Source: a virus. From it: a DNA stretch of 44,390 bases. A program made the position numbers and the translations under genes. The first letter of the stretch is position 1. Every line of letters begins with the position of its first letter. The notes under the pieces were generated by a model. It was not told the origin of the DNA and searched no databases. It saw nothing but the letters and a program-made list of their open reading frames with translations. The stretch lies in the IMG/VR virus record IMGVR_UViG_3300030503_000223; one strand, written 5' to 3'. Below are positions 1 through 44,390 of this stretch, in pieces.

Positions 1-127
1 TCGCCCTCCCCTGCGCGGCGACGAAAGGGAAATTCCTACTTTTCGTCCTTGCCGTTCTTCTCGAAGATTTTGGCGGCTTCTAGACGATCAGGATGGAAGA
101 GCAAGTCCCTAGTCGACCAAATGATCT
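1..127. repeat. Terminal direct repeat, copy 1 (identical to 44264-44390); indicates a circularly closed contig
   Basis: Bases 1-127 match 44264-44390 base for base when read by eye. Confidence 0.9.
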
Positions 128-335: not shown

Positions 336-416
336 TACTAAATACTGGGCTCAGATCCACCAAAAACAATCCCGAAGCTCAATAGTAATCTCTTTCCCGC
401 ACCGAGGTGAGCCAAT

Positions 417-30989: not shown

Positions 30990-31155
30990 GGTTGCCCTTC
31001 ATTCGTTTGACTGCTGCATTGGCTTCACGGATCGCCCGACCCTCATCCCCCGTCCGACTCAGAACTGCATCACTGATTTTTGCCCAGACCTTGCGTGCAT
31101 GAGGGCTCTTGGCCTTGCGCGTGTGCTTCTGGGCGTCCTCGGGATTCCAAGGCAT
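30979..31155 (-). CDS. Small basic protein, below the ORF-track size cut-off
   Basis: Hand translation: MPWNPEDAQKHTRKAKSPHARKVWAKISDAVLSRTGDEGRAIREANAAVKRMKGNHGR. Its ATG overlaps the upstream stop (ATGA at 31155). It fills an otherwise empty gap. Confidence 0.35.
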   Translation of the reverse strand: MPWNPEDAQKHTRKAKSPHARKVWAKISDAVLSRTGDEGRAIREANAAVKRMKGNHGR

Positions 31156-31463
31156 CACGGTCTGCCCGGGAATATGCGAATGGGAGTGCCTTTGGCGTCC
31201 TTGCGTCTCAAATCCTCGACGGTGAACTGCTGCAGGCTCAAAAGCCCCAGGCTCTCGTCATACTTGGGCCCGCGCACGGGGTATTCGCTCGGATGCATGG
31301 TGTGGGTGGGGGGAGTGGGGAGTTCTCTTACGCGAGCTTCCAGAAATTCCTGACGCTTCTGCCACACCACGGCCAGAACCTCCGCCGGTGAAGGCGTGGG
31401 AAGCTGCCAATCTCTGTCGAGTGCATCGAGCTCCGCTTCGAGTTGTTCACGCGTCATGAACAT
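31155..31463 (-). CDS. Hypothetical protein
   Basis: Start trimmed to ATG 31463, after the upstream stop at 31468. 102 aa. Confidence 0.4.
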   Translation of the reverse strand: MFMTREQLEAELDALDRDWQLPTPSPAEVLAVVWQKRQEFLEARVRELPTPPTHTMHPSEYPVRGPKYDESLGLLSLQQFTVEDLRRKDAKGTPIRIFPGRP

Positions 31464-31467
31464 CGCG

Positions 31468-31710
31468 CTACCCTGCAGCCCCTGCGCTCTTGGTTTCAAC
31501 TCGCCGATTCAACCAACGACAGGCGGGATCTGGCAGATGCACCCCGTGTAAATCCTCATCCAGCACATAGATTCGCTGGACGCTCACCCGGTATTTGGCC
31601 GCCAATAGCTTGACGCTCAATCCACGAAGCTTCTGCAGGAGTCGGCGACGCACCCGCAAAGCGGCAGACAGTTCACGCTTTTGAGCCTCACTGAGCTTGC
31701 TGCGACTCAA
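31468..31710 (-). CDS. Putative small HTH regulator (start uncertain)
   Basis: The C-terminal LSVKLLAAKYRVSVQRIYVL looks like an HTH. The 5' part of the tracked ORF overlaps rusA and is Ser/Pro-rich. A TTG at 31710 is proposed as the start. Confidence 0.3.
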   Translation of the reverse strand: MSRSKLSEAQKRELSAALRVRRRLLQKLRGLSVKLLAAKYRVSVQRIYVLDEDLHGVHLPDPACRWLNRRVETKSAGAAG

Positions 31711-32050
31711 TACGCACCACAGTTCTGTGAGGTTTACCGATGTGCTGGTGATATTCGGCGGTGAGATGAGCAGGGGAGTCATCGAGGATGAAGCCCTCAG
31801 CGACCAGGGAATCAGTGAGGGGCTTGGTGCCCGACACGAAGTTGTCGAAATCGAGAAGTCTTGCGCCGTAGCGCTCAATCTTCAGACGTACGTGTTCGGG
31901 AGGCGTCAGGGGTGGGTGTAAGTGCATCCTCGCTACCCTGACTAGCCACGCCCATTTCTTGCGTTCCTTCGCCTTCTTCGTCCAGTGATGACCGTGAAAA
32001 CGGTTCATCGAAGGCGTGGCCACGGGAATGGTGAGTGTGATGGGCGTCAC
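31688..32050 (-). CDS. rusA: RusA-like Holliday-junction resolvase
   Basis: ITLTIPVATPSMNRFHGHHW and LLDFDNFVSGTKPLTDSLVAEGFILDDSPAHL align with E. coli RusA ITLPWPPSNNRYYRH and [27 protein letters not shown]. A GTG start at 32050 is proposed. Confidence 0.65.
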   Translation of the reverse strand: MTPITLTIPVATPSMNRFHGHHWTKKAKERKKWAWLVRVARMHLHPPLTPPEHVRLKIERYGARLLDFDNFVSGTKPLTDSLVAEGFILDDSPAHLTAEYHQHIGKPHRTVVRIESQQAQ

Positions 32051-32052
32051 GC

Positions 32053-32280
32053 TCAGTGCTTCACCAGAAACCACACACCGGCAACGGTGAGCGCCCAGAA
32101 GCCAAGAAGACACAGCCCCAACATCAGTACCGCGTGACGCTCTGAGAATGTTTCCCGTGGAACACGCGGGGCGTAGTGGGGCTCGAGGGTATATAAATCC
32201 CGCAACCCCGCGCGCAGGCGAGTGTCGATAAGTTCGTTGTCGTCTATCACAGGGCCTCCCGATACACACGCAAGAACCAA
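32053..32280 (-). CDS. Small protein with C-terminal TM segment
   Basis: 75 aa. C-terminal AVLMLGLCLLGFWALTVAGVWFLV. Confidence 0.4.
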   Translation of the reverse strand: MVLACVSGGPVIDDNELIDTRLRAGLRDLYTLEPHYAPRVPRETFSERHAVLMLGLCLLGFWALTVAGVWFLVKH

Positions 32281-32447
32281 TCTGCGTATGTCAGCTTGTC
32301 GTGTTTGGTGGTGGCCAAATCCCTGGCACGAATGGCGTGACGAGCTTTCTCCTTGCGCTCGCTCTCTGTGGTCAAACCATCGAACAACGTACAGTGGTAT
32401 GGCTTGAGAGCCTTGGCGAGCAGGAGTTCGTCGGTCAATTTGCTCAT
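32247..32447 (-). CDS. Hypothetical small protein
   Basis: 66 aa, in the operon. Confidence 0.4.
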   Translation of the reverse strand: MSKLTDELLLAKALKPYHCTLFDGLTTESERKEKARHAIRARDLATTKHDKLTYADWFLRVYREAL

Positions 32448-32977
32448 GGCTGATCTCGTATCAACTTAGCCTCGGCGTCGGCGCAAGCCATATGCCAGCG
32501 CCAGTGCGTTTTTTGTTCTTCAACCGTAGGCTCGCTTCCCCAATCGCGCATATCCGCGGCCCACGAGTTCTTGTGCCTGACCAAGCATCCGGTGAGCTCA
32601 ACGCCCACGTAGTGAATGCCCTTCTCCGACTGCTTTGCGATGTGCGCAAGCAAGTGGGTGTTCGCTGCGACTACCCAAGGGTCCCACAGTGTCTGATCCG
32701 CAATACGAGGCGCATCGGTTGGCCGATCATCGTCATCGATGGTCCGACAGAACTTCGTGAACTGCGGGAGGGACGGAACTCCCATGGAACCTGACTTGAG
32801 CAGACGCCGCATCCCACGCTCAAGTTCGTAGTCCTTGAGGCCGCCAATCTCGGATACCCACTCCGGCGGGGGCGCCTTGCCAAATCGGCGCTCCACGGAT
32901 TCCCCGCCAAAGATGCCAACGAAATGGCGCCAAAGACTATCCGCGCGCGATTGCGCGTGGGAGCTCGTCGGTTTCAT
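32444..32977 (-). CDS. Replication protein P-like (putative helicase loader)
   Basis: LWRHFVGIFGG..(~30)..GMRRLLKSGSMGVPSLPQFTKFCR parallels lambda P RRQWVLAFRENG...AGMRVARRQNRPFLPSPGQFVAWCR. Downstream of the initiator-like gene. Confidence 0.5.
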   Translation of the reverse strand: MKPTSSHAQSRADSLWRHFVGIFGGESVERRFGKAPPPEWVSEIGGLKDYELERGMRRLLKSGSMGVPSLPQFTKFCRTIDDDDRPTDAPRIADQTLWDPWVVAANTHLLAHIAKQSEKGIHYVGVELTGCLVRHKNSWAADMRDWGSEPTVEEQKTHWRWHMACADAEAKLIRDQP

Positions 32978-33830
32978 GCTCGATCACCTGTGCGCTGCCG
33001 CCGTTGAGGTGGCGCAGGATTCGTTCGGAGGCGTTCTCTGCCTTGGCTGGAGGGTTCCAGGGGAGAAGGAACGGTTTGCTCGGGCCGAGGAACGACGCTG
33101 CTTGCTTGACGTACTCGGTGGCGTTTTTCCCGGTTGCCTGGATGAACGCCGCGTAACGCTTAGCGCCAGCGAGGAACTCGTCGGCGGTGTGGCCTTCGGC
33201 GAGTCTGGCGTTGGCGGCTCTCAGGGCTCCGCGCCAGTTCTGGTCCCCCGCTCGCTCCGGATAGCTGAGCTTGAAGTCCAGCATCCAGTCGGGACCTGTT
33301 TCACGTGAATCCACCAACCTGGTGGGCGGCGCAGCCGCCGTACAGTTCTTCTTCTTGTTTGAGTCTGAGTTTGAGTCTGAGTATGAGTATGAGTATGAGT
33401 GAGTGTCTTGGGGTATGCTGTGGTGTCCGGTGGTGTCCTGAGGTGTCTGTAAGTGTCTCTCCTTGTACCTGCGAACCTTCTCGGCATTGCGTCCGTCTTC
33501 GACCTGGTTGCGGTCAGAGGCTTTGCGGCGGTACAGCTTGAAGTTGACCACGAGCCAACCCCAATCGCGATGGCCGTCAAGGAGTCTCAGGCGGGCACCG
33601 CTGGCGTCGCTCGAGCGCGAGCCGGGGTCCGCAGCGCAGAAGCGCTTCATGCACGCTACGATTTCAGGTACGGGCAATCCGGTGACGCTCGCCAGGAACT
33701 GGGGCGTCACATCGACCTTACCCTCCCAGTCGGTGAGCGACAGGACGATGGGCCACAGACCTATGTCTGGCCATTTTCCGCAGAGTGTCCCGGTTGTCAG
33801 TGACGGGAACAGGGGCGTGTAGCCACTCAT
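32937..33830 (-). CDS. Putative replication initiator (lambda O-like position) with low-complexity linker
   Basis: 297 aa. Sits between the HTH gene and the P-like gene. The central linker QDTTGHHSIPQDTHSYSYSYSDSNSDSNKKKN is encoded by iteron-like DNA repeats. Confidence 0.45.
   Translation of the reverse strand: MSGYTPLFPSLTTGTLCGKWPDIGLWPIVLSLTDWEGKVDVTPQFLASVTGLPVPEIVACMKRFCAADPGSRSSDASGARLRLLDGHRDWGWLVVNFKLYRRKASDRNQVEDGRNAEKVRRYKERHLQTPQDTTGHHSIPQDTHSYSYSYSDSNSDSNKKKNCTAAAPPTRLVDSRETGPDWMLDFKLSYPERAGDQNWRGALRAANARLAEGHTADEFLAGAKRYAAFIQATGKNATEYVKQAASFLGPSKPFLLPWNPPAKAENASERILRHLNGGSAQVIEHETDELPRAIARG
33347..33461. repeat. Candidate replication origin: (TTC)n tract, 7 tandem GAGTNT hexamers, and 5 RGTGTCY sites phased at 10 bp
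   Basis: GAGTCT GAGTTT GAGTCT GAGTAT GAGTAT GAGTAT GAGTGA at 33361-33402. RGTGTCY sites start at 33402, 33422, 33432, 33442 and 33452. Confidence 0.45.
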
Positions 33831-34024
33831 CCGGCGAGCCGATAGCTCGCGAAGCGCTTATCCCCGCATTTCTCCACTCGGGAGGTGATGCGGTGACCGT
33901 CATTGCGCAGGTCCAGAATCCGTGCGGCCAGACGAAAACAGCCAAAGCGCTTGAGAGCGTCAATGGCTGTTAAGGGTCTGCCGGTGGCGAGGTGGTCAAT
34001 GATTCGTTGGGCTTGGGTTCGCAT
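33827..34024 (-). CDS. Small winged-helix/HTH protein (HTH_39-like)
   Basis: 65 aa. QAQRIIDHLATGRPLTAIDALKRFGCFRLAARILDLRNDGHRI matches the pattern of that phage HTH family. AAGGA RBS. Confidence 0.55.
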   Translation of the reverse strand: MRTQAQRIIDHLATGRPLTAIDALKRFGCFRLAARILDLRNDGHRITSRVEKCGDKRFASYRLAG

Positions 34025-34164
34025 GCCTAAATCCTTATGTACGTTTTCGTACAGACGAGGTACCGGTTGAGCCGTCTAATAGCGTTGAGGTTGTCTAGTC
34101 TTGGTATTGGTGCAGAGCACAAAAACCCTCTTAGGTCTGGACATTAAGTCTTAACTCAGTTGAC

Positions 34165-34190
34165 AAAAAAAGGCTGGAAATACAGCCTTT
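34165..34190 (-). terminator. Rho-independent terminator downstream of the XRE repressor gene
   Basis: On the minus strand: AAAGGCTG-tatttc-CAGCCTTT followed by a run of seven T. Starts 17 nt after the stop at 34207. Confidence 0.7.
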
Positions 34191-34206
34191 AGAGCGAAAC
34201 TAACTT

Positions 34207-34413
34207 CTAACTAACACGCTTCCGGCTCTGCTGGTCGAGAAGCGCGTCGATCGAGAGTCCCGTTGCAGTCGCTAGCTTCTTCAGCGTCTCCGCTGAGGGG
34301 AGGCTGTCCCCGGAAAGCCATCCCCAGACGGTGGGCTGCGTCACGCCGACGCGCCGCGCAAGCTCGGCTTGCGTCATCGCCTGCTCCTGCAGGTATTCCT
34401 TGAGTCGGTTCAT
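34207..34413 (-). CDS. XRE-family (Cro/CI-type) HTH repressor, probably leaderless
   Basis: 68 aa from ATG 34413. MTQAELARRVGVTQPTVWGWLSG is a classic HTH_3 motif. Upstream ATG and TTG candidates lie inside or upstream of the promoter -10 element. Confidence 0.8.
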   Translation of the reverse strand: MNRLKEYLQEQAMTQAELARRVGVTQPTVWGWLSGDSLPSAETLKKLATATGLSIDALLDQQSRKRVS

Positions 34414-34420
34414 AGGCGTC

Positions 34421-34448
34421 ATTATAGGCGAAACCGATGCCCTGTCAA
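34421..34448 (-). promoter_or_regulatory. Leftward sigma70-type promoter TTGACA-16-TATAAT
   Basis: Minus strand reads TTGACA (34448-34443), a 16-nt spacer, TATAAT (34426-34421), then 7 nt, then ATG 34413. Confidence 0.65.
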
Positions 34449-34497
34449 TAGACAATCCCTATATCCATGGCGGTACAAGAAATATAGGTTTCATCTA

Positions 34498-34526
34498 TTG
34501 ACACGGGCATAGGTCGCGCCTATAGT
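34498..34526 (+). promoter_or_regulatory. Rightward sigma70-type promoter TTGACA-17-TATAGT
   Basis: TTGACA at 34498-34503 and TATAGT at 34521-34526. GGAGG RBS at 34542-34546 and ATG at 34552. The 15-bp palindrome ATAGG-TCGCG-CCTAT (34509-34523) overlaps the spacer and -10 element. Confidence 0.65.
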
Positions 34527-34551
34527 GCCTCCACTGACCTTGGAGGCGAGC

Positions 34552-34734
34552 ATGAAAAACCAGATTCTCAAAGACACTGACGGCTTCACCGTTCTGCCGG
34601 AACGCGTCGAGCACATCGCCGAAGAGTTCCAGCGCGCACTTCAGACGCCGGTACTCGTCACCAAGTCCGAAGACGACCTGCGTAGCGTCATCATCCAGAT
34701 CGCGCTGCTCGGGGGCCGGAGGGCGCGCCAGTGA
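34552..34734 (+). CDS. First rightward early protein (Cro-position), function unknown
   Basis: 60 aa from the ATG with a GGAGG RBS. The 5' extension in the ORF track would overlap the promoter. Confidence 0.5.
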   Translation: MKNQILKDTDGFTVLPERVEHIAEEFQRALQTPVLVTKSEDDLRSVIIQIALLGGRRARQ

Positions 34735-35105
34735 CCGACCTACGTTCCGAGATAGAACTGCTCGAAGCCAAGGTGCGCGCCGCCTGCACGGCGCTGCGTC
34801 AGGCCCGAGAAACCGTCAACCTTCTGCGCGAGGAACGCGACGGGCTTGCTGAGGCACTCTGGACCATCAGCACCGGCTCCGATCTCGTCTCCGCCACAGT
34901 CGCAAGAGCTGCGCTCCTGAAGATGCCCCTGTGCATGGAGTGCGATCAGCGGCGCGCCGTCGAAGGCGAAGACCTGTGCGAAGAGTGTGCGCAGAACCAG
35001 GCAGAAGCTGCCCACGAACGCGATCAGGGGGAATGCTTTCGCGGTGCAGAAGCTGAGGCGTTCCACGCAGAGCAAATGGCTCGCATCCAGAGGATGTTTA
35101 AGTGA
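34731..35105 (+). CDS. Hypothetical coiled-coil / CxxC...CxxC protein
   Basis: 124 aa. GTGA-coupled start. Contains CMECDQ..(11)..CEEC. Confidence 0.5.
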   Translation: MTDLRSEIELLEAKVRAACTALRQARETVNLLREERDGLAEALWTISTGSDLVSATVARAALLKMPLCMECDQRRAVEGEDLCEECAQNQAEAAHERDQGECFRGAEAEAFHAEQMARIQRMFK

Positions 35106-35268
35106 ACGTGATGCACTGGTGGCAGACACTCTCATGGTCGCATGCCGCTTTAATCCTTTGCGTACTTGGAGCCGGGGGAAGCCTCGTCACCCTTCTCCAC
35201 CGAAGACCCGGGCGTCTCCCGGCTCCGAGTGCTCACTGCCAGCGCAACAGCGTCGAGGCGGTGACGAA

Positions 35269-35433
35269 ATGAACGGCCCCAACGATTACTCCGATGAAGC
35301 CGAGACTGGCTACCTCGCCGACATGGACGCCGACTCACGGCAAGCCTACCGCGAAGACATGGAAGGCGATCCGTGGGGCGAAGAGCAGTGGCCCGAAGAA
35401 GAAGACGACACAGATCCTCAGGAGTTTAAGTAA
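35269..35433 (+). CDS. Very acidic 54-aa protein
   Basis: MNGPNDYSDEAETGYLADMDADSRQAYREDMEGDPWGEEQWPEEEDDTDPQEFK has 20 Asp/Glu against 3 Arg/Lys by hand count. GAGG lies upstream. The stop overlaps the SSB start (TAATG). Confidence 0.45.
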   Translation: MNGPNDYSDEAETGYLADMDADSRQAYREDMEGDPWGEEQWPEEEDDTDPQEFK

Positions 35434-36065
35434 TGGCAATCATGGCTGAAGACACAGGCGGCAAGGACTTCAAGAAAGTCCCCGCGGGCTGTCACTTCGC
35501 AATCTGCAACATGGTGGTTGATCTTGGCATCCAGGAATCGACCTACATGGGCGCGCCCAAGCGCATGCACAAGGTCTATCTGCGTTGGGAAGTCCCCGAC
35601 GAGCGCGTGTCTTACGAGAAAGACGGCAAGAGCATCGAGGGCCCTTGCTCCATCGGCTCGATGTACACGCTGTCGCTCTCCGAGAAGGCAAATCTGCGCA
35701 AGGTACTGGAGAACTGGCGCGGTGTTCCCTTTACACCCAAGGAGCTCAAGGGCTTCGATATCACCACCGTCGCCGGTAAGTGCTGTCAGGTCATGGTTCA
35801 GCACAAGACTTCAGGCGACAAGACCTACGCCAACATCACGGGCGTCATGGGCATCAGTAAGGATCAAAAAGAACGCGCTCGCAACGCGAAGTCTGAGGTC
35901 GGGGTCGTTGTCTACTCCCTCGACGACCCCGACCCGGAGGTGCACGAGCGTCTGCCTATTTGGCTGAAGGAAAAACTAGAGAACCGTATAGCGCCTCCGA
36001 GTGTTCATGCCGCAACGGCTGCAGGCACGACAGACGAAGAATTCGACGACGATATTCCTTTCTAG
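35433..36065 (+). CDS. ssb: Phage single-stranded DNA-binding protein (DUF669-like body) with bacterial SSB C-terminal tip
   Basis: 210 aa, ending ...TDEEFDDDIPF, identical to the E. coli SSB acidic tip DDDIPF. The N-terminal KKVPAGCHFAICNMVVDLG pattern resembles DUF669 phage SSBs. GGAG RBS. Confidence 0.65.
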   Translation: MAIMAEDTGGKDFKKVPAGCHFAICNMVVDLGIQESTYMGAPKRMHKVYLRWEVPDERVSYEKDGKSIEGPCSIGSMYTLSLSEKANLRKVLENWRGVPFTPKELKGFDITTVAGKCCQVMVQHKTSGDKTYANITGVMGISKDQKERARNAKSEVGVVVYSLDDPDPEVHERLPIWLKEKLENRIAPPSVHAATAAGTTDEEFDDDIPF

Positions 36066-36067
36066 CC

Positions 36068-36337
36068 ATGAGCATCATCGCGTCAAACATCGATCCGCGC
36101 GGGGATCTCTCCGGGGTTAATCCCGATTCTGTAACGGGTCACTGCGCTGTCATCGAGTACATCCTCACGCGCGACAAGGATGAGTTCCAGATTGCAGACG
36201 AACTGCGGGCGTATGTGAAGCAGTACTTCTACTCGAATCACGAGCTTTACATCGCTGTGAACGACAAGCTGGCCGCAGATAAAGTGATCTCAAAAGCCAA
36301 CTGGAAGAACTATCTTTCGCTGGTGCTGGAGGTCTGA
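36068..36337 (+). CDS. Hypothetical protein
   Basis: 89 aa from ATG 36068, just after the SSB stop. Confidence 0.45.
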   Translation: MSIIASNIDPRGDLSGVNPDSVTGHCAVIEYILTRDKDEFQIADELRAYVKQYFYSNHELYIAVNDKLAADKVISKANWKNYLSLVLEV

Positions 36338-36816
36338 TGGAACTTCTGTTCACCAAAGGCAACACCGGGCTCGTTCCAGCAAGTGACGAAGCGCGCGAGT
36401 GGCTGGATAAGAAGAAGCGTGGTGTCGCAATCATGGTTGAGCCGAGAGAGATCCGAAATGGCGCGTTCTTTCGCAAATGGTGGGCGCTCGTGAAGCTCGG
36501 CTACGAATATTGGGAAGGCAGCGCACAGACCATCGAGTACAAAGGTCATGCAGTGCTTCCCGATTTCGACCGCTTCCGTAAGGACGTGATCATCATGTGC
36601 GGTCACTACCATCCCGTCGTTGGGATCAAGGAGGAAGTGCGCATCGAACCGGATTCCCTGCGTTGGTCGCAGATGGATGAAGGCACATTTGAGAAGCTGT
36701 ACGAAGCAACCATCCGCGTGCTGCTCGCCCGTGTGTTCAATGGGAAGATTTGCCCCGCATGGACCGAGGAACAACTACGTGAAGTCGCGGAGAAATTTCT
36801 TGAGTTCGCGGCGTGA
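36337..36816 (+). CDS. DUF1367-like phage protein
   Basis: 159 aa. REIRNGAFFRKWWALVKLGYEYW resembles the DUF1367 signature as I remember it. Confidence 0.5.
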   Translation: MELLFTKGNTGLVPASDEAREWLDKKKRGVAIMVEPREIRNGAFFRKWWALVKLGYEYWEGSAQTIEYKGHAVLPDFDRFRKDVIIMCGHYHPVVGIKEEVRIEPDSLRWSQMDEGTFEKLYEATIRVLLARVFNGKICPAWTEEQLREVAEKFLEFAA

Positions 36817-37415
36817 AGGCGCACAAGCTTGAAATGGCCTGTGCCGAGTGCGGCCGCTCCTACTTCAAGAGGGCAGATCGCATTCGTGACCCAGATTTCT
36901 GCCGGATCGCGTGCAGGAAGTCATGGGACGCCAGAAGACGATTCGAGTCTCGGGCAAGGGATTGTGAGTATTGCGGGAAGAATTTCATTCCCCGGGCGGC
37001 CCAGCTCCGCGCAGGGGGTGGCAGATTTTGTTCCGTTTCCTGTTCCACACGCGCAATGGGGCATTTGATCCACTCTCCTGAGAGCCGCAAAAAGGCGGCA
37101 GCCACATGGCGAAGGAATGGGAACAAAGTGCCAGAGGGGCCTGGTCATCCGCAGTTTATGGGCCGCAAGTTGGTTAGCGGTTATGTGATGGTCTGGGTGG
37201 ACGATCGCGGCTACATACAGGAACACCGGCTCGTTGCAGAGAAGAGCTTGGGGCGCATGCTTAGGGCTGATGAAGTCGTCCATCATCGCAACGAAATAAG
37301 GACGGATAACCGGCCCGAGAATTTAGCGGTTATGACCCGCGCGGAGCACATGAACGAGCATCGCGACACGCTTGTTACCGCAAGAAAGGCCGTGCCATGG
37401 CGCAAGACCGGTTGA
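36813..37415 (+). CDS. HNH homing-type endonuclease with two N-terminal zinc-ribbon repeats
   Basis: 200 aa. HHRNEIRTDNRPENLAVMTRAEHMNEH is an HNH motif. N-terminal CAECG..FCRIAC and CEYCG..FCSVSC repeats. GTGA-coupled start. Confidence 0.8.
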   Translation: MKAHKLEMACAECGRSYFKRADRIRDPDFCRIACRKSWDARRRFESRARDCEYCGKNFIPRAAQLRAGGGRFCSVSCSTRAMGHLIHSPESRKKAAATWRRNGNKVPEGPGHPQFMGRKLVSGYVMVWVDDRGYIQEHRLVAEKSLGRMLRADEVVHHRNEIRTDNRPENLAVMTRAEHMNEHRDTLVTARKAVPWRKTG

Positions 37416-37678
37416 GCAAGGAGGCAAGAGGTCGTGAGTGCCAAGGTAGGATTCCTGGCGCATGCAATTTTAACTCGGAAACAACGGTGCTCGCGCACTT
37501 CAGACTTATCGGAATTTCCGGCCTCGGTATCAAGGCTCCTTCCTGGTGCGGAGCATGGCTTTGCTCGGGGTGCCATACCTTGGTTGACTCCTGCAAAGAT
37601 GATGACGTCCAACTCGACTTCGCAAAAGCCGTTCTTCGGACCCTCGGCATTCTTTTCACGGAGGGAAAACTGAAATGA
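37397..37678 (+). CDS. DUF1364-like (YbcO-type) putative nuclease
   Basis: 93 aa. CQGRIPGACNFNSETTVLAHFR......G.G.K......AWLCSGCH..VD fits the DUF1364 Cys/His pattern. Confidence 0.55.
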   Translation: MAQDRLSKEARGRECQGRIPGACNFNSETTVLAHFRLIGISGLGIKAPSWCGAWLCSGCHTLVDSCKDDDVQLDFAKAVLRTLGILFTEGKLK

Positions 37679-37715
37679 GCCGCCCGACCGTCATGAAGCA
37701 GAGGAGCTAGGGTAA

Positions 37716-38882
37716 GTGAATAATCCGCTCATGCCGCTCTCATTCACGCGCACTCTGCGTCTGAAAGTTCGCGCCGAGTCCTATCCATGGCTCAATGCTG
37801 CGGCGGTCGAAGTCAATCAGGTATTCAATTGGGCGAATGCGACCAGCTTTGATGCACGCCGCCGCACGGACCTTAAATCCAAGTGGCTCTCTGGCTTCGA
37901 CCTGTGCAACCTGACCAGCGGGGCGACGGAGTATTTCGAGCGGATCGGCGCTGACACGATTCAGTCAATTTGCACGCACTACGCGCAGAAGCGGACAGCA
38001 GCCAAGCGCCTGAAACTACGCTGGCGCGTGAGCCGAGGTGTGCGCCGCTCGCTCGGCTGGATACCGTTCAAGGCGGCGAGTCTCAAGCGACGCGGCAACG
38101 CGCTGCGATTTGCCGGCAAGAGTTTTCGGGTATTCGAAAGAGAGCAACTCGCCGGTGTAAAGTGGCGTGATGGGTGCTTCGCGCAAGATGCAGTCGGGGA
38201 CTGGTACTTGTGTCTGCCGGTCATTGTGACGGCAGAACAGACCGTAGCTCCGATGGAGGCCGTCGGCATCGATCTTGGACTCAAGACCATTGCCACGACT
38301 AGCGATGGCGAGAAATTGGAAGCCGGACGCTGGACGGTCGGTAATGCGGTAGCGCTTGCCAATGCGCAGCGCCGTGGGCATAAGCGCCAAGCCAAGCGGA
38401 TACACCGCAAGACCGCGAACCAGCGCAAGGACGCGCTGCATAAATTCAGCACTGGGATCGTGCGCAGATATCAGACGATAGTCGTTGGCGACGTGAGCAG
38501 CCTCAAACTGGCCAAGACCAAAATGGCCAAGTCCGTTCTGGACTCAGGTTGGGGGATGCTCAAGAACTTCCTGGATTATAAGAGCCAGTCGGCTGCCAGG
38601 AATTTCTCAGTAGTCAGCGAGAGTTACACCAGCGTCACTTGTTCTTTGTGCGGGTCGCTTAGCGGTCCGCGTGGGGTAAACGAGTTGATTGTAAGGTCGT
38701 GGATATGCCGGGACTGTGGTGAGTCCCATGACAGAGACATTAACGCGGCTCTGAATATCCTGACCGCCGGAAGGTGCTCCGGTCCGTGCGCGGGAACGAG
38801 TCTTTCACCGCATGCAGTCGCGTCGAGCACGGCATCTCGCCGTCGCGAGACAGGTAAAAGACTGCGTGAGGTGGCGGCATGA
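37716..38882 (+). CDS. tnpB: TnpB (IS605 OrfB family RNA-guided endonuclease)
   Basis: 388 aa. GAGGAG RBS 9 nt before GTG. RuvC-I is AVGIDLGLK (D186). Zinc finger CSLCG...CRDCG. RuvC-III is HDRDINAALNI. The canonical RuvC-II E is replaced by G258 (IVVGDV), and a Glu lies at 302 (VVSESYTS). Confidence 0.9.
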   Translation: MNNPLMPLSFTRTLRLKVRAESYPWLNAAAVEVNQVFNWANATSFDARRRTDLKSKWLSGFDLCNLTSGATEYFERIGADTIQSICTHYAQKRTAAKRLKLRWRVSRGVRRSLGWIPFKAASLKRRGNALRFAGKSFRVFEREQLAGVKWRDGCFAQDAVGDWYLCLPVIVTAEQTVAPMEAVGIDLGLKTIATTSDGEKLEAGRWTVGNAVALANAQRRGHKRQAKRIHRKTANQRKDALHKFSTGIVRRYQTIVVGDVSSLKLAKTKMAKSVLDSGWGMLKNFLDYKSQSAARNFSVVSESYTSVTCSLCGSLSGPRGVNELIVRSWICRDCGESHDRDINAALNILTAGRCSGPCAGTSLSPHAVASSTASRRRETGKRLREVAA

Positions 38883-39042
38883 GCACCGGGAAACTCGCAC
38901 GCGAAATCTTCTGGTTCCTGATTATTTTGGTCATCGCGACGTGCGTCAGTTTTTTGATACCGCCTGCGGATATTGGGGTGAGCTATCTACCGGGTACGCA
39001 CTGATGGGCCGATCCGCGATTCATTTTACCACTGGAGATATT
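38760..39042 (+). ncRNA. Candidate omega (right-end) guide RNA scaffold of the TnpB element
   Basis: Assigned by position: the 3' end of tnpB plus a 164-nt non-coding tail. Hairpins CCGGA-aggtgc-TCCGG (38767-38782) and TCGCG-t-CGAG-cacggcat-CTCG-ccgt-CGCGA (38818-38847). T-run at 38950-38955. Boundaries are not defined. Confidence 0.35.
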
Positions 39043-39046
39043 TGAA

Positions 39047-39370
39047 ATGACTGCAAAGAAACTCGATGCTGATCAGATCCGTCAGGGAGACGTTCTCATC
39101 GTTCGTGTGGGTGACGCTCCGCGCTCAAAGAGCGAAGGTCGTGTGGTGATCGCGTACGGGGAGGTAACGGGCCACAGCCATCAATTCATGGCCGAAGCCA
39201 AGGTATCGTACCTCGGCCGTGAGGCGGGACTCGACCGCTATGGCGTCCCTGCGACGGCAAAACTCTTGCATGAAGAGCACACCGCCCCTGCCGTGCCGGC
39301 CGGCCTCTACGAGCGTCCGGTACAAGTCGAATGGCAGGACTCGATGGAGCCGCGCATCGTCGCAGATTGA
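39047..39370 (+). CDS. Hypothetical protein with GEVTGHSH motif
   Basis: 107 aa. GGAGA RBS. QGDVLIVRVG...IAYGEVTGHSHQF resembles a recurrent phage protein family of unknown function. Confidence 0.5.
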   Translation: MTAKKLDADQIRQGDVLIVRVGDAPRSKSEGRVVIAYGEVTGHSHQFMAEAKVSYLGREAGLDRYGVPATAKLLHEEHTAPAVPAGLYERPVQVEWQDSMEPRIVAD

Positions 39371-39383
39371 GGGGGAAGCCAAT

Positions 39384-41075
39384 ATGTCATTACTCGATCA
39401 GTACAAAGAAGCCTGTAACTTCCCGGGCAAACTCGATGTAGCCGCTGTTGAGAAATCACTGGCGGCTTACTGCTCAGCGCTGGGCGTCAGACGGGAGATC
39501 GTCCGCTTGCCCAGGGGCTGGTCGCTGGAGAAGTATCCACCCCTGTCAAAAATGATCCACGAGGTTCTGACGGACTTCGAGAAGCGTTCGGGGCGTAAGC
39601 CCAGCGCCGCCCTCGACGCCCTCGACGCCCGCGCCGCCCACGCCGCCAGCGACGCCCACGACGCCCACGACGCCCGCGCCGCCCACGACGCCCACGACGC
39701 CCTCGACGCCCACGACGCCCGCGCCGCCCACGACGCCCTCGACGCCCACGACGCCCGCGCCGCCCGCGCCGCCCGCGCCGCCCACGACGCCCACGACGCC
39801 CTCGCCGCCCTCGACGCCCGCGCCGCCCGCGCCGCCCGCGCCGCCCTCGACGCCCGCGACGCCCGCGCCGCCCGCGCCGCCCTCGACGCCCGCGCCGCCC
39901 ACGACGCCCTCGCCGCCCACGACGCCCTCGCCGCCCACGACGCCAGCGCCGCCCGCGCCGCCCTCGCCGCCCGCGCCGCCCACGACGCCCACGACGCCCG
40001 CGCCGCCCTCGACGCCCGCGCCGCCCACGACGCCCTCGCCGCCCACGACGCCCTCGCCGCCCACGACGCCCTCGCCGCCCACGACGCCCTCGCCGCCCAC
40101 GACGCCCTCGACGCCAGCGCCGCCAGCGACGCCCGCGACGCCCTCGCCGCCCTCGCCGCCCGCGACGCCCTCGACGCCCGCGCCGCCCGCGCCGCCAGCG
40201 CCGCCCACGCCGCCCTCGACGCCAGCGACGCCAGCGACGCCCGCGCCGCCCGCGCCGCCCGCGCCGCCCACGACGCCAGCGCCGCCCGCGCCGCCCTCGC
40301 CGCCAGCGCCGCCAGCGACGCCCTCGTTACTTTCTCACCGCTACACAGTTTTGCAGAGTGGTGCATCTATCGGCGCACCTGGTGGTGGACTGGTGAATTG
40401 TCCTGGTTCAGCACGACGCACGTAGGTGCGGTGCAATTACAGAAGCCGACTGTGCTTCATTGGAGCCAGCACGTATTCGATGCCTACGTTTCAGGGGCAT
40501 GGCTGCTGGTATGGACAGACACCACCTTGTACTGGATCGCAAAACCCACCGTGACGACAGAGCTTGTGAATGGTCGCAGACAACTGCACAACGCGACCGG
40601 TCCGACCTTGGAGTGCGACGTGCAGAATCTCTACTTCTGGCACGGCGTGATGGTGCCGGCGTTCGTGGTAGTGAAGCCTGAGTGGATTACGCTCAAGCAT
40701 ATCGAGACCGAGGACAATGCCGAAGTACGCCGCGTGATGATCGAGCGTTATGGTACGGCGCGATACATCAAGGATTCAGGGGCTGAAGTGGTTCACGAAC
40801 TTCCGGACAACTATTACGTCAAGGGGCTGCAAGGCGCGAAGCTTTATCGCAAACCGCGCAAGGATGATTCAGACATCATCATGATCTCGGTCGCCAACTC
40901 CACGCCAGAGCCCGACGGTAGCATCAAGCAGTACATGCTGCGCATACAGCCCGACGCGTACAACGGAGCAGCGGCCAAGGATTGTCACGCGGCCATGGCG
41001 TCTACGTGGCGGCGGCAGGATGGGACGCTGTATTTCAGCAAGCCGCAGGACTACCGCCCCGAGTTTGAATCATGA
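39384..41075 (+). CDS. Tripartite protein: 73-aa N-terminal region, 240-aa (X-[D/A]-A)x80 repeat, 251-aa Trp-rich C-terminal domain
   Basis: ATG 39384 with a GAGGGGGAAG RBS. The tracked 5' extension overlaps the previous gene. The C-terminal domain (HNATGPTLECD..YFWHGVMVP...ITLKHIETEDNAEVRRVMIERYG) resembles an uncharacterised domain I believe is Pfam DUF6745. Confidence 0.75.
   Translation: MSLLDQYKEACNFPGKLDVAAVEKSLAAYCSALGVRREIVRLPRGWSLEKYPPLSKMIHEVLTDFEKRSGRKPSAALDALDARAAHAASDAHDAHDARAAHDAHDALDAHDARAAHDALDAHDARAARAARAAHDAHDALAALDARAARAARAALDARDARAARAALDARAAHDALAAHDALAAHDASAARAALAARAAHDAHDARAALDARAAHDALAAHDALAAHDALAAHDALAAHDALDASAASDARDALAALAARDALDARAARAASAAHAALDASDASDARAARAARAAHDASAARAALAASAASDALVTFSPLHSFAEWCIYRRTWWWTGELSWFSTTHVGAVQLQKPTVLHWSQHVFDAYVSGAWLLVWTDTTLYWIAKPTVTTELVNGRRQLHNATGPTLECDVQNLYFWHGVMVPAFVVVKPEWITLKHIETEDNAEVRRVMIERYGTARYIKDSGAEVVHELPDNYYVKGLQGAKLYRKPRKDDSDIIMISVANSTPEPDGSIKQYMLRIQPDAYNGAAAKDCHAAMASTWRRQDGTLYFSKPQDYRPEFES
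39603..40322 (+). repeat. 80 tandem 9-bp units [CTC|CGC|CAC|AGC][GAC|GCC]GCC, in frame, with no indels
   Basis: Parsed codon by codon from the sequence and consistent with the ORF-track translation. Confidence 0.95.
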
Positions 41076-41383
41076 GCGCAGAGCATCGGGCTGAAGATCA
41101 GCGGGTCGTTTGTTCCGCGGTGCGGCACGCCGACGGCCGGATGGTCTGCGGCCCTCGGCACCTAGACGGCATCATGTGGGCTCAGATCCTAGGGATGACC
41201 TACGAGGACTTCGCGCGCCTTCAGCGGCTGAACGCCCTGCCGCCCTTGCCGGACGAAGCCAAAGGGTGGGCGAAAGCCGAGCAGGGATTCATTGACCAGT
41301 TCGGGACGTTCCTTACGCGCGAGGAAGCCGCCAAGATCGTCGGGAAGCCCTCGGGCGTGCTCTACAGCGAGGATCTTTATTAA
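41072..41383 (+). CDS. Hypothetical protein
   Basis: 103 aa, ATGA-coupled. VVCSAVRHADGRMVCGPRH...EQGFIDQFGTFLTREEAAKI...LYSEDLY resembles a recurrent phage family of unknown function. Confidence 0.5.
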   Translation: MSAEHRAEDQRVVCSAVRHADGRMVCGPRHLDGIMWAQILGMTYEDFARLQRLNALPPLPDEAKGWAKAEQGFIDQFGTFLTREEAAKIVGKPSGVLYSEDLY

Positions 41384-41724
41384 TGCCTGCTCCGCTGTCA
41401 TCGAAACCGTTTAACGGCCTAACCGAGGCTGAGGCAGAACAGACGCTCGTGTGCGATGCGCATCCAGATTGCGATTGGTCAGGCCCCATGGCAGAGACCG
41501 TTGAGGTCGATACTCTAATCTGCTGCCCAAAGTGCAAGTCCGCCGTAACTACGGCCCGGGGCCTCAGCACGCAGGAATATAGGGCCGTGTGGCGAGTCCT
41601 GCGCCTTGTAGACGGCTATCTGAGTGAAATGCCGCAGGAGACCTTACACGGGCACGGGGGCGGCTTTATGACAATAGCCGAGCTTCGGCAACACGTTCAG
41701 GGGGCACTGGGATTACTGGAATAG
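41383..41724 (+). CDS. Hypothetical Cys-cluster protein
   Basis: 113 aa. CDAHPDCDW...CCPKCKS. Start overlaps the upstream stop (TAATG). Confidence 0.45.
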   Translation: MPAPLSSKPFNGLTEAEAEQTLVCDAHPDCDWSGPMAETVEVDTLICCPKCKSAVTTARGLSTQEYRAVWRVLRLVDGYLSEMPQETLHGHGGGFMTIAELRQHVQGALGLLE

Positions 41725-41729
41725 CTCAC

Positions 41730-42155
41730 ATGACCAAGGATCATCGACTCAAAGGGGCTCTGGCGAACATAGAGCGCCGTGCTCAGGCTGGCGGAAACGC
41801 CTTCAACGAGTTCTGGCCGGCCGAAAGGCTGGTGGACTTCAAGGCGTCCCGGACCATGTACCAGCGGGCCAATCATCAGCTCTACTTCCGGTTTATCTCA
41901 GCCTCACAGCCGGTTATCTACGGGCCAGCCCCGGTGCTGCCGGTGGGGACTCTCCTGCCCGGAGACCTCGGTACCGGCATGGGGCCCTACAAGCGTCCGG
42001 GGCAGGTCTTCGGTGAGCGCGATCCTGTGAGCCCGTACCTGACCTCGCGCGCCGCCGCTGTCCCACCGCTGCTGAGTTTGCCCAGTAAAGCCCCCGCCGC
42101 TGTCCCACCGCCTCAGTCCCTCCAAGGCCCCGCCTATGCAGCCGCGTCCTGGTGA
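41730..42155 (+). CDS. Hypothetical protein with Pro-rich tail
   Basis: 141 aa. Contains an in-frame 18-bp direct repeat. Confidence 0.45.
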   Translation: MTKDHRLKGALANIERRAQAGGNAFNEFWPAERLVDFKASRTMYQRANHQLYFRFISASQPVIYGPAPVLPVGTLLPGDLGTGMGPYKRPGQVFGERDPVSPYLTSRAAAVPPLLSLPSKAPAAVPPPQSLQGPAYAAASW

Positions 42156-42221
42156 AGGCCCGTGCCCGCTGTGCGGGCGCACGGACGCCCACAGTCACTA
42201 TTCAGGGCCTTGGTGGATGAC

Positions 42222-42596
42222 ATGAGCGAGCAGCCGACTTCAAATCTTGTGAGCACGCTGCGGGAAGTATTGCGCGCTGACCCGGCACGAGATAGTCGCA
42301 ATGTCCGCCTTGCCCTGAGCGACGCCATAGGCGAGATCGAGCGGCTTCGGGCAGCGCTGGAGCGCATCATGCACGGCCATAACGTCCATGCCGAGGACAT
42401 GCAGAAGCTGGCGGCGGCAACGCTAGCAGGAGCACCGGACGACTCGTCCGACGGACCCGGCGAGGAAGATGGGCCGTGGGCTGCTGGCTATAACGAACGC
42501 GCCGGACTATGCCCGCACGGCATGAGGCTCGCTGACAACACCTGCGGACCGTGCTCCAAGGGACTACCGAATAAAACAAAACCGGAGCATCCATGA
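42222..42596 (+). CDS. Hypothetical protein
   Basis: 124 aa from ATG 42222. The upstream extension is Arg/Ala-rich and unlikely to be coding. Confidence 0.45.
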   Translation: MSEQPTSNLVSTLREVLRADPARDSRNVRLALSDAIGEIERLRAALERIMHGHNVHAEDMQKLAAATLAGAPDDSSDGPGEEDGPWAAGYNERAGLCPHGMRLADNTCGPCSKGLPNKTKPEHP

Positions 42597-42850
42597 GGAT
42601 CATCTACGGCAACGGCCCAACCAAGTATGGTCCAGGCGTTGATATCCGGCTGACCGGCGACGAGGTAGCCATTGCGATTATGGCTTGGCTGGTCGCCAAA
42701 GGCGTTCACGTCGATGGCCCCCGGACGGTCACGGTCAACGGCGAGTTGTGCAATAACGGGCGCGTGTACGTAGATCCCTCCGGCTTCGCCATCACTCCAA
42801 AGGGTCGGAAGCTATCAGGCAGAGGCGCTGAGAACGGGTCCAATGAATAA
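42593..42850 (+). CDS. Hypothetical protein
   Basis: 85 aa, ATGA-coupled. Confidence 0.45.
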   Translation: MRIIYGNGPTKYGPGVDIRLTGDEVAIAIMAWLVAKGVHVDGPRTVTVNGELCNNGRVYVDPSGFAITPKGRKLSGRGAENGSNE

Positions 42851-43049
42851 AATCAACCAGAGGTGGGAGCAGTTCACCGCAGAAGCCGAGCGCCGGGGTT
42901 GCGATGTGCGGGTGGCTTACCACACAGACAGCGGCATCTGGCACGCTCTGGATCGTTCCAAGGCGCCTGCGCGTGTACCTTTAGGTCAGTGGACTGATGT
43001 TGAGGGTGGGACTGCCGAATGGTTGGCGGAGAATGGGCAAGAACCATGA
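42843..43049 (+). CDS. Hypothetical protein
   Basis: 68 aa. Overlaps the upstream gene by 8 nt. Confidence 0.45.
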   Translation: MNKINQRWEQFTAEAERRGCDVRVAYHTDSGIWHALDRSKAPARVPLGQWTDVEGGTAEWLAENGQEP

Positions 43050-43165
43050 TGCATGAGATACGAGTGTGGCTTGGTGGGTGCCTTTTGGTCGGCGGTTGGG
43101 CGGTCGCTGCTGAAATCGCAAAATGGCTTGGGGCCCATTGGGCGTTCGAACTTCGCCGGCACTGA
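43046..43165 (+). CDS. 39-aa putative membrane peptide, below the ORF-track cut-off
   Basis: Hand translation: MMHEIRVWLGGCLLVGGWAVAAEIAKWLGAHWAFELRRH. ATGA-coupled upstream. Its stop directly abuts the next ATG (43166). Confidence 0.35.
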   Translation: MMHEIRVWLGGCLLVGGWAVAAEIAKWLGAHWAFELRRH

Positions 43166-43477
43166 ATGAACATCCTGCAGCTACTCGACAGGCGTCCTGA
43201 CGTACCGCTCAAATTGCGGCTCATGGCTGTTCAGGGTGGCCTCTGCTGGATTTGTCACAAGCCGATCTGTTTGGAGAAGGGCTGCATGAACTATGCCACT
43301 AGGGACCATATACAGCCGGTGAAGCATGGCGGCACAGCGCAATCAAATATTCTGCTGGCTCATTTCGCCTGCAATGTCGCGAGACAGGCCCCGAAGCTAA
43401 TGGAAAAGCGCAGAACCTATATGGAGTGGGCGCTCTCGCGCGTCAGGCGAGCAGCTCCAACCGTGTCAGATGAATAG
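43166..43477 (+). CDS. HNH endonuclease (small, phage-type)
   Basis: 103 aa. CWICHKPI...DHIQPVKHGGTAQSNILLAHFACN is an HNH motif. Confidence 0.75.
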   Translation: MNILQLLDRRPDVPLKLRLMAVQGGLCWICHKPICLEKGCMNYATRDHIQPVKHGGTAQSNILLAHFACNVARQAPKLMEKRRTYMEWALSRVRRAAPTVSDE

Positions 43478-43491
43478 AAATCCGGTTGAGC

Positions 43492-43701
43492 ATGCTTGAT
43501 TTCATACGCGCATGGATCTGGCTACCGTCCCGCGAGGGGAAGTCCTACGGCTTCGCCTCGGGCTCTGAGCGCAGACGCTGGTTCGAGCGCGGGTCGGTGG
43601 AGGTTAACGGGCGGAAAGCGGCTGCGGACGATCCGTGGCCCTCAGAAACAGATAGTGTCGTACTGCATCCCAGTGGCCGGCACAGAACGACACTCGTTTA
43701 G
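43492..43701 (+). CDS. Hypothetical protein, possibly S4-like RNA-binding fold
   Basis: 69 aa from ATG 43492. GFASGSERRRWFERGSVEVNGRK weakly resembles the S4-domain pattern (SKSEARRLI.QGGV.VNG.K). Confidence 0.35.
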   Translation: MLDFIRAWIWLPSREGKSYGFASGSERRRWFERGSVEVNGRKAAADDPWPSETDSVVLHPSGRHRTTLV

Positions 43702-43713
43702 AGACTCCGCACC

Positions 43714-43818
43714 ATGAATCTAGAAGTAGATGCGCCGCATGGGTTCGACTGGCGTGAATGTGTGAGGGAATGCATCACTAGCGCACGCTCAGCCGTAACC
43801 GTGGACGTTAAGCCATGA
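43714..43818 (+). CDS. 34-aa micro-ORF
   Basis: Hand translation: MNLEVDAPHGFDWRECVRECITSARSAVTVDVKP. Its stop overlaps the next ATG (ATGA). Confidence 0.3.
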   Translation: MNLEVDAPHGFDWRECVRECITSARSAVTVDVKP

Positions 43819-43955
43819 TAATACCTACGGCTGGGTGGATTTTGGCCCGCAGCTATCAGCTGGCGCGGTTCGATGTCACTAACGAGTTTGGCGTGCGTTT
43901 GGTCGGTTGGGCCTATATCGGCCCACCGGAATCACAGTCCGAGGGACAGAAATGA
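43815..43955 (+). CDS. 46-aa micro-ORF
   Basis: Hand translation: MIIPTAGWILARSYQLARFDVTNEFGVRLVGWAYIGPPESQSEGQK. ATGA-coupled at both ends. Confidence 0.3.
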   Translation: MIIPTAGWILARSYQLARFDVTNEFGVRLVGWAYIGPPESQSEGQK

Positions 43956-44233
43956 GATATGAGACTCGTTGGCGTCGCCGCGCTAGAGAGCGCGAACAAT
44001 GGCACGTCAAATTCGCTCTGTTCCCAAGGGAGATTGGTGCCGAGAGCGTATGGCTAGAGAATTATTGGCGTCGATGGTGTCCTGGGCCTTATGTGACTGA
44101 AGATGACCGCATAGACGCTATCTATGCCGCAATGGCCGGATGTAATTGGGGCTATTGGGAATACAGTTTGCAGCCCCCGAAGTCGCCCGATAGGGACGAG
44201 AAAGTTGTTTCCATAAGAAGGCTCACCGTTTAA
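43952..44233 (+). CDS. Hypothetical Trp/Arg-rich protein, last rightward gene
   Basis: 93 aa from ATG 43952, ATGA-coupled. Confidence 0.45.
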   Translation: MRYETRWRRRAREREQWHVKFALFPREIGAESVWLENYWRRWCPGPYVTEDDRIDAIYAAMAGCNWGYWEYSLQPPKSPDRDEKVVSIRRLTV

Positions 44234-44250
44234 CTCAAGTCCTGAGCAGG

Positions 44251-44284
44251 AAATAAAAACAATTCGCCCTCCCCTGCGCGGCGA
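44251..44284 (-). terminator. Candidate terminator at the convergence of the two transcription directions (spans the contig junction)
   Basis: On the minus strand, after the stop of ORF 36-335: TCGCC-(11 nt)-GGCGA followed by ATTGTTTTTATTT. The stem is short, only 5 bp. Confidence 0.35.
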
Positions 44285-44390
44285 CGAAAGGGAAATTCCT
44301 ACTTTTCGTCCTTGCCGTTCTTCTCGAAGATTTTGGCGGCTTCTAGACGATCAGGATGGAAGAGCAAGTCCCTAGTCGACCAAATGATCT
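44264..44390. repeat. Terminal direct repeat, copy 2 (identical to 1-127)
   Basis: Exact identity to the first 127 bases. Confidence 0.9.

Follow-up and report, generated by a model that had tools for sequence, protein, structure and literature searches.

A probable coding minisatellite with two mixed residue positions per unit in a DUF6745 gene of a tailed phage

How can a protein-coding repeat differ from unit to unit at two of its residues and show no synonymous difference anywhere along its length? The question is raised by a gene in IMG/VR virus record IMGVR_UViG_3300030503_000223, a stretch of 44,390 nucleotides that was analyzed whole and is referred to here as the window. The gene encodes a protein of 563 amino acids (aa) in which 80 consecutive 9-bp units separate an N-terminal domain from a C-terminal domain of the family DUF6745. 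The answer that we favor, and to which we give a probability of about 55%, is that the array is a coding minisatellite in a tailed-phage accessory gene, that it is under concerted evolution, and that it encodes a linker whose mixed residues are kept by selection. The gene likely starts at the ATG at 39384, with GAGGGGGAAG ahead of the start, and ends with the stop codon at 41073-41075; the array is in frame with both. The parts of the gene are as follows.

39384 to 41075, plus strand: array gene, an open reading frame (ORF) with its translation; 563-aa product made of N-domain, 240-aa repeat and DUF6745 C-domain
39384 to 39602, plus strand: N-terminal domain, 73 aa, kept among relatives of the 9-bp type
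39603 to 40322, plus strand: array of 80 units of 9 bp, (L/R/H/S)-(D/A)-A, defined by unit counts and a codon test
40323 to 41072, plus strand: C-terminal domain, 250 aa, DUF6745, with a Pfam match and a confident alpha/beta model

The array occupies 720 bases, and each of its units consists of CTC, CGC, CAC or AGC, then GAC or GCC, then GCC; the 9-mers that flank it on either side do not fit this pattern. In-frame translation gives (L/R/H/S)-(D/A)-A 80 times over, between the N-domain and DUF6745. Named by their residues, the eight unit types are RAA (22 units), HDA (20), LDA (11), LAA (11), SAA (6), SDA (5), RDA (3) and HAA (2). Base variation is confined to unit positions 1 (69 C, 11 A), 2 (36 G, 22 T, 22 A) and 5 (41 C, 39 A), with the other six invariant. 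No difference is found at any of the 240 third-codon positions, so that each amino acid has a single codon, and the translated repeat consists of 50% Ala, 16% Asp, 10% Arg, 9% Leu and 9% His. There is also order above the level of the unit. HDA and LAA alternate in two places, over units 34-38 and over nine units that contain a 74-nt exact self-match at an 18-bp shift, and an 18-bp period outscores the 9-bp period in this array, as it does in many relatives. RAA triplets occur three times, at sites that return below as deletion junctions.

40026 to 40106, plus strand: HDA/LAA alternation of nine units (48-56) with an 18-bp super-period, from the unit list
39756 to 39782, plus strand: RAA-RAA-RAA, units 18-20, left junction of the 26-unit allele L165/P0123
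39819 to 39845, plus strand: RAA-RAA-RAA, units 25-27, left junction of the 33-unit allele L001/P0001
40242 to 40268, plus strand: RAA-RAA-RAA, units 72-74, right junction of both the L165 and the L001 deletions

These features had been set out in a preliminary description made from the letters of the stretch: 80 phased 9-bp units of eight types, six invariant positions with variation only at 1, 2 and 5, no synonymous difference, the two alternations and the three triplets. Exact pattern matching and base counts bear all of them out, and the hand count of unit types given there is exact. Its exclusion of three ordinary explanations is likewise supported. The units abut without spacers inside a conserved ORF and do not form a CRISPR (clustered regularly interspaced short palindromic repeats) array; the unit make-up excludes a plain microsatellite; and ordinary low-complexity coding sequence would show codon drift. 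In a codon test, GCC serves for all 121 Ala codons of the array and for 37% of Ala in nine other genes of the window, all four Ala codons are in use in the flanks of the array gene itself, and the probability of the array's codon choice under background usage is log10 P ~ -92. Codon bias is therefore ruled out as the cause of the monotony. A pentapeptide repeat, A(D/N)LXX, was rejected as well, as the period is 3 residues in the array and 4 in its 12-bp relatives. On the minus strand, two long ORFs (39467-40366 and 39546-40271) extend no further than the periodic stretch and exist only because periodic sequence lacks stop codons. In one of its reverse-complement frames the unit would give Gly-(Val/Gly)-(Val/Ala/Glu), whose collagen-like look is probably meaningless. 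A collagen-like Gly-X-Y protein on that strand was rejected because it is the plus frame that joins the N-domain (33 relatives) and the C-domain (all related loci examined).

The array changes in length by whole units. In the 90%-identity cluster of the 563-aa protein, alleles of 34, 33, 26 and 26 units accompany the one of 80, with amino-acid-identical flanks. Three alleles were compared at the DNA level, and each can be derived from the 80-unit array by removing a single internal block of whole units. The 33-unit allele L001/P0001 retains units 1-27 and 75-80, with 35 nt of junction identity, and the 26-unit allele L165/P0123 retains units 1-20 and 75-80, with 43 nt. In the third, L164, unit 9 is joined to unit 64 with a junction identity of just 5 nt, which cannot stem from collapse of a de Bruijn graph at k=141. 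The retained parts of the deletion alleles are identical to the 80-unit array base for base, and a few single-nucleotide differences in their flanks mark them as distinct strains. Thus, 46 to 54 of the 80 units are missing between strains with identical flanks.

Pairs from other lineages behave in the same way. Two pairs of loci whose C-domain DNA is 100% identical are separated by indels alone, of 19 units in L029/L036 and of 35 units in L047/L090, and at 97% and 93.6% C-domain DNA identity alignment of the arrays is no longer possible. Relatives have between 4 and 80 units, and one homologue, P0028, has unique sequence where the array would be. The array therefore gains and loses whole 9-bp units, its copy number differs among near-identical phages, and its order decays much faster than its flanks. 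In-frame shuffling of units in multiples of 9 had been foreseen in the preliminary description, along with a comparison of unit number and order between orthologues; number proves to vary on identical flanks, and order is scrambled at 93-97% flank identity. Exact-pattern scans of metagenome and viral contigs gave no further alleles of the window phage. The L047 array is on a viral contig and has 39 units; the 4-unit L090 array is on a 161.6-kb contig of a Candidatus Polarisedimenticolia metagenome-assembled genome and could be a prophage copy with a collapsed array.

The window array belongs to a widespread arrangement. The C-domain matches Pfam PF20530 (DUF6745) over residues 398-526 (5.6e-26, 91.5 bits, cut-off 27), a family of 4616 clusters (50% identity, E <= 1e-3) from which a separate search drew 408 homologues. 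An in-frame periodic array lies just upstream of DUF6745 in 72 of the 80 best-matching IMG/VR loci and upstream of it in 34 of 80 genome loci; most actinomycete and Obscuribacterales chromosomal homologues are without one. Complete IMG/VR arrays run from 7 to 80 units (median 38), and the window's 80-unit array is at the top. Two types of unit are found, each with its own amino-acid grammar. The 9-bp type reads Ala-(Arg or Leu/Ile/Met/Trp/His/Ser/Gln)-(Asp or Ala), and the 12-bp type reads (Ser/Gln/Ala)-(Val/Leu/Thr)-(Arg/Trp/Gly, or Asp/Tyr/His)-(Asp or Ala/Gly). In any one array just 2-3 nucleotides per unit vary, mostly at second codon positions (77, 156 and 22 variable positions at codon positions 1, 2 and 3, of 296 each), and many arrays have four unit types, that is, two binary sites.

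Codons are fixed per lineage and differ between lineages: GCC, GCA, GCG or GCT for Ala, CGC, CGG, CGT, CGA, AGA or AGG for Arg, and GAC or GAT for Asp. Arg and its alternative share their first and third bases in the pairs CGC/CTC, CGG/CTG, AGA/ATA and AGG/ATG, a set that also includes AGG/TGG, and Asp and Ala share the third (GAC/GCC or GAT/GCT). The alternative residue is always a single-base neighbor of its partner, with the other two bases in common. Lys, which AAA or AAG would supply from the Arg codons AGA and AGG, is absent, and transversion-derived Leu, Ile and Met dominate. Units are more alike within an array than between lineages, with fixed positions invariant inside and different codons outside; a few synonymous variants are present in the arrays L004 and L009. 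That the amino-acid grammar is kept while the DNA differs places the constraint on the protein, and the lineage-specific codons imply that each array is homogenized internally. The preliminary description had named an ordinary Ala-rich linker, with synonymous drift and fixed unit order in homologues, as the finding that would speak against it; the opposite is seen.

The arrays are also systematic assembly breakpoints, and this biases which of them appear complete: 33 of the 72 array-bearing IMG/VR contigs (46%) end inside the array. One contig carries array sequence in two separate stretches (L173/L174), one of which ends within a few bases of the end of the stretch.

Across the family, the two grammar sites are kept mixed. 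All 70 arrays analyzed are polymorphic at these sites, mostly at frequencies of 30-50%, and singletons make up only 25 of the 235 segregating positions. Each of the 70 also has a positive Tajima-like D, the mean being 1.57 and the value for the window array 2.36. The coupling of His with Asp and of Arg with Ala, to which the preliminary description drew attention, is real in the window array (Fisher p = 4e-8, in a test whose units are not independent) and does not extend to the family: in 44 arrays the Arg state and the Asp state are uncorrelated at every residue offset, with a mean correlation of about 0, so that the coupling is specific to this lineage. Block duplication is detectable in 29 of 43 arrays, that of the window included.

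The same grammar recurs outside DUF6745. A search with the repeat alone found Ala-x-(Asp/Ala) arrays in phage-contig proteins from at least four unrelated families; the codons of these arrays are equally monotonous, and two nucleotides vary per unit. When IMG/VR was scanned for the DNA pattern of the 9-bp unit type, 68 stretches came up, some of whose proteins belong to yet other families, and in every long scanned array that had a complete ORF, the Ala-x-z frame is the one that runs on into the flanking domains. Grammar arrays are always in this frame and always lie between or after folded domains. Pfam searches with the other array families returned only a sub-threshold DUF7666 match, in one family, and PHROGs only a few sub-significant matches of unknown function, for P0135. 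The loci concerned are these.

L167 953-1906, L168 6001-6858 and L170 6001-6813: non-DUF6745 array proteins with 9-bp arrays, usually near the C-terminus
L205, L220, L226, L233 and L234: further non-DUF6745 array loci

Recombination or slippage between units thus adds and removes whole 9-bp units, and in the model that we favor this turnover would homogenize every nucleotide of the unit. Such homogenization, as inferred across lineages, would leave the array without synonymous variation. Selection on the protein would meanwhile keep two adjacent residue positions per unit mixed between charged (Arg, Asp) and uncharged states, one site alternating Arg with a hydrophobic or other single-step neighbor and the other alternating Asp with Ala. 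That the same two positions are mixed in 70 of 70 arrays, each lineage using its own codons, points to such selection. The product would be an Ala-rich, charge-speckled linker or stalk that separates the N-domain from the DUF6745 domain. It is probably alpha-helical, and its composition may matter where its exact length and order do not; this is the weakest step of the model. In the full-length AlphaFold2 (AF2) model, the repeat forms long helices over residues 75-96, 109-222 and 244-315, with a predicted local distance difference test score (pLDDT) of 40-86. Across 44 arrays, residues in the Arg and Asp states are not preferentially paired at i+4 (mean phi -0.001).

Several observations weigh against this model. 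The long arrays L013, L023, L027 and L121 are indistinguishable from random unit strings, and lag-1 autocorrelation is slightly negative, a pattern not predicted by simple duplication-driven growth. The helix model of the repeat is weak, its pLDDT of 40-86 being accompanied by arbitrary breaks, and the 12-bp relatives, with their many Gly, Val and Trp residues, are not likely to form helices, so that no single secondary structure may be required. Profile and structure searches gave no function for the N-domain, the C-domain or the 107-aa partner protein described below, and we cannot say concretely what need a mixture of charged and uncharged residues would serve. Ascertainment by assembly could also inflate the apparent heterogeneity and randomness: short reads cross only arrays without long perfect repeats, and with 33 of 72 arrays ending contigs, the complete ones are a biased, high-entropy sample.

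Could the array instead be a runaway minisatellite in a permissive linker, a neutral or selfish expansion whose variable positions are merely tolerated changes and whose heterogeneity is an artifact of short-read assembly? The tolerance of anything from 4 to 80 copies, the unique sequence of P0028 and the ease with which deletions occur would all suit such an origin. With 46% of IMG/VR contigs breaking inside the array, homogeneous arrays would be invisible, and the synonymous variants of L004 and L009 show that there is no absolute ban on them. We nevertheless regard this explanation as unlikely. Tolerated change would not be expected to fall on the same two positions in 70 of 70 arrays and again, with different codons, in unrelated families. 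Nor would it be expected to pass over Lys, the conservative and transition-derived substitution, in favor of transversion-derived Leu, Ile and Met, and the heterogeneity of partial arrays at contig ends equals that of complete ones.

A rather improbable variant on selection is that the arrays are an undescribed phage contingency or diversification device, with two switchable sites (charged or uncharged) per 3- or 4-residue unit, a dedicated process, or a strongly biased one, that makes the combinations, and fast unit turnover in an arms race with the host. Patterns might then be selected, for instance, to escape or saturate a host sensor that recognizes the protein, and several unrelated phage proteins would have adopted the device independently.

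Programmed diversification, in which a diversity-generating retroelement (DGR) or another dedicated mechanism mutates two or three defined nucleotides per unit, would account for dozens of differences at defined positions and none at 240 third-codon positions. It would also suit the long arrays that resemble random binary strings and the lack of positive correlation between neighboring units. We consider it very unlikely all the same. A blastn comparison of the locus with the window gave self-matches only (39599-40326), and there is thus no second copy of the array to serve as template. Pfam calls for 29384-44390 and 1-6812, and for ten large ORFs, include no reverse-transcriptase domain. The allele sets at positions 1, 2 and 5 (C/A, G/T/A and C/A) misfit strand-specific adenine mutagenesis, and most relatives, with A/C at one site and G/T at the other, would need adenine on opposite strands. 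The array is the same on 8 contigs, and the parts retained by the deletion alleles match it base for base; pairs with identical flanks differ by indels only; and allele pairs obey an amino-acid grammar across different codons. A DGR variable region in particular was rejected on the missing template repeat, the lack of adenine specificity and the unit indels between close relatives.

A third group of explanations would give the units a meaning of their own. In a recognition code resembling those of TALE and PPR proteins, the two variable residues of each unit would read one element of a target, be it a nucleic acid or a repetitive polymer. The preliminary description had raised the idea of a selected combinatorial repeat with two specificity-like positions. 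The two positions, mixed in 70 arrays with each lineage's own codons, do point to selection; nothing speaks for specificity, given that order is unconserved, blocks are lost and the sites are independent. Two adjacent variable residues on an invariant scaffold, the presence of all eight combinations and an arrangement kept across the family give the code some appeal. It has little probability left, however, when a 3-residue unit cannot fold as a module, for which about 30 residues or more are needed, when 46 to 54 of 80 units are lost between strains with identical flanks, when most lineages have only two states per site, and when the two sites and neighboring units are statistically independent.

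It is just as improbable that the array acts as DNA or RNA (an array of binding sites, a structured RNA or a recombination hotspot) with its coding incidental, or that it provides in-frame recombination adapters for domain swaps. All nine unit positions, third-codon positions included, are fixed within each array, as the first would have it, and arrays of the same kind join different N- and C-terminal domains in several families, as the second would. Unit DNA differs freely between lineages under one amino-acid grammar, however, the Ala-x-z frame runs on into the flanking domains in all long arrays with complete ORFs, and no Rfam match was found; for the adapters, no hybrid protein with the N-domain of one family and the C-domain of another was seen.

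That the array is a mis-assembled or collapsed repeat can be set aside almost entirely: the contig is a short-read metagenomic one, related contigs often break at arrays and one contig (L166) looks chimeric at its array, but the identical 563-aa product is found on 8 contigs from two assembly sources (JGI and ENA), the longest exact repeat within the array is 76 bp, shorter than both the k=141 given in the names of the ENA contigs and the 127 bp by which the ends of the JGI contig overlap, the reading frame is intact, and the same architecture is present on hundreds of independent contigs. In L166 (positions 1-426, ENA contig k141_1909248), the gene is truncated: the final 80 nt of the array run straight into 346 nt with no match in the window. 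Either the assembly is chimeric or a rearrangement has taken place at the array, and L166 was not used as an allele.

The domains that the array separates were examined in turn. The N-domain lies upstream of the array in 33 related loci (tblastn), with conserved columns in alignment A2 and an AF2 pLDDT of 82-97 over residues 1-60; it has no Pfam or PHROG match. The AF2 model of the C-domain is alpha/beta with a mean pLDDT of 86.7. Foldseek found no structural relative of it in PDB (best match E = 0.59), and its sole match in BFVD, a set of predicted viral structures, was another DUF6745 protein. Foldseek with the full-length model and profile searches of PDB gave no functional lead, and searches of the protein, its domains and its neighbors with Pfam, PHROGs, PADLOC and NCBIfam assigned no function.

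The gene immediately upstream recurs with DUF6745.

39047 to 39370, plus strand: upstream partner gene, 107 aa, phrog_27831, function unknown

It holds this position in 79 of the 95 loci with enough flank, array-free chromosomal homologues included, and its family is very large and entirely unnamed. The invariant columns in alignment A3 (RQGDV, GExTGHxH, HEEH, E and a C-terminal D) suggest a resemblance to a metal site. It has no Pfam match and no relative in PDB, a profile search of PDB included. The array protein would work together with this partner.

Two genes upstream of the array gene, at 37716-38882 on the plus strand, is a TnpB-type gene with OrfB_IS605 and Cas12f1-like TNB domains (phrog_506, "transposase"), and the 164-nt gap that follows it gave no Rfam match to a guide RNA. 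An HNH_3 endonuclease gene (37158-37415, plus strand) lies upstream of the TnpB gene, and a gene with a Pfam T4_Y16D match (41072-41383, plus strand) lies directly downstream of the array gene; neither the HNH_3 nor the T4_Y16D neighbor is kept beside DUF6745 genes in other loci. The window as a whole is a tailed-phage genome with a GP7-type major capsid protein, a T7-type portal and a lysozyme. Positions 1-127 are identical to 44264-44390, from which we conclude that it is a circularly closed genome of 44,263 unique bases. No Rfam families or tRNAs were found in it, and 50,697 deposited phage genomes gave no nucleotide or protein match.

What began as one odd stretch thus leads to a general rule in phage dark matter, by which two adjacent residues toggle while all other nucleotides are homogenized, and to a natural case of concerted evolution together with maintained polymorphism within one gene. 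There are practical consequences too. Because the arrays break nearly half of related viral contigs and differ in length between strains, they affect how soil and peat phages are assembled, dereplicated and typed to strain. The His/Glu-rich 107-aa partner and the DUF6745 protein form a conserved two-gene unit that is tractable in cultured hosts carrying it.

How does the array compare with what is known? A literature search found no paper on DUF6745, and motif strings gave chance matches only; the repeat-mining paper PMC10392669, in the parts available to us, appears not to cover the DUF6745 array family. Coding minisatellites under concerted evolution are already known. What appears undescribed in the searchable literature is the very short two-toggle unit, the fact that thousands of phage proteins have kept it, and its reappearance in families that are unrelated.

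Bacterial surface proteins contain variable-number tandem repeats, examples being the Ser-Asp stalks of the staphylococcal Clf and Sdr proteins and the repeats of the group B streptococcal alpha C protein. Like these, the array consists of head-to-tail units with a length that is a multiple of three, its copy number varies between close strains, its units are more alike within an array, and it forms a spacer between folded domains whose length is tolerated. Unlike them, its unit has only 3 or 4 residues, in every lineage exactly two adjacent positions are mixed between charged and uncharged residues, and it is found in phage accessory proteins, recurring in several unrelated families. The amino acid tandem repeats (aaTRs) of the extrachromosomal elements called Borgs are perfect in-frame tandem repeats and were reportedly read, by Schoelmerich and colleagues in 2023, as making linkers or disordered regions. 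They share with the array fast in-frame evolution in a mobile element and a reported lack of synonymous variation, but they are perfect copies with varied unit sequences, whereas the arrays here are made of rule-bound imperfect units and follow one grammar over thousands of proteins.

DGRs resemble the array in that they are found in phages and vary particular codon positions with no frameshifts. The array differs from them in having no template repeat and no adenine-specific alleles, in being stable across 8 assemblies, and in that close relatives are separated by unit indels and not by point changes. TALE, PPR and PUF proteins share with it an invariant scaffold with two variable residues per unit; their units are of 33-36 residues against 3 here, and the array's order is unconserved, with two states per site in most lineages. 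A further comparison is with Ala-rich, charged helical spacers such as domain II of TolA, the single alpha-helix (ER/K) domains and designed EAAAK linkers. The array is like these in its high Ala content, its interspersed acidic and basic residues, its predicted long helices and its interdomain position, and it is set apart from them by a strict 3-residue period, codon monotony, a site that mixes hydrophobic residues with Arg, and 4-residue relatives rich in Gly, Val and Trp.

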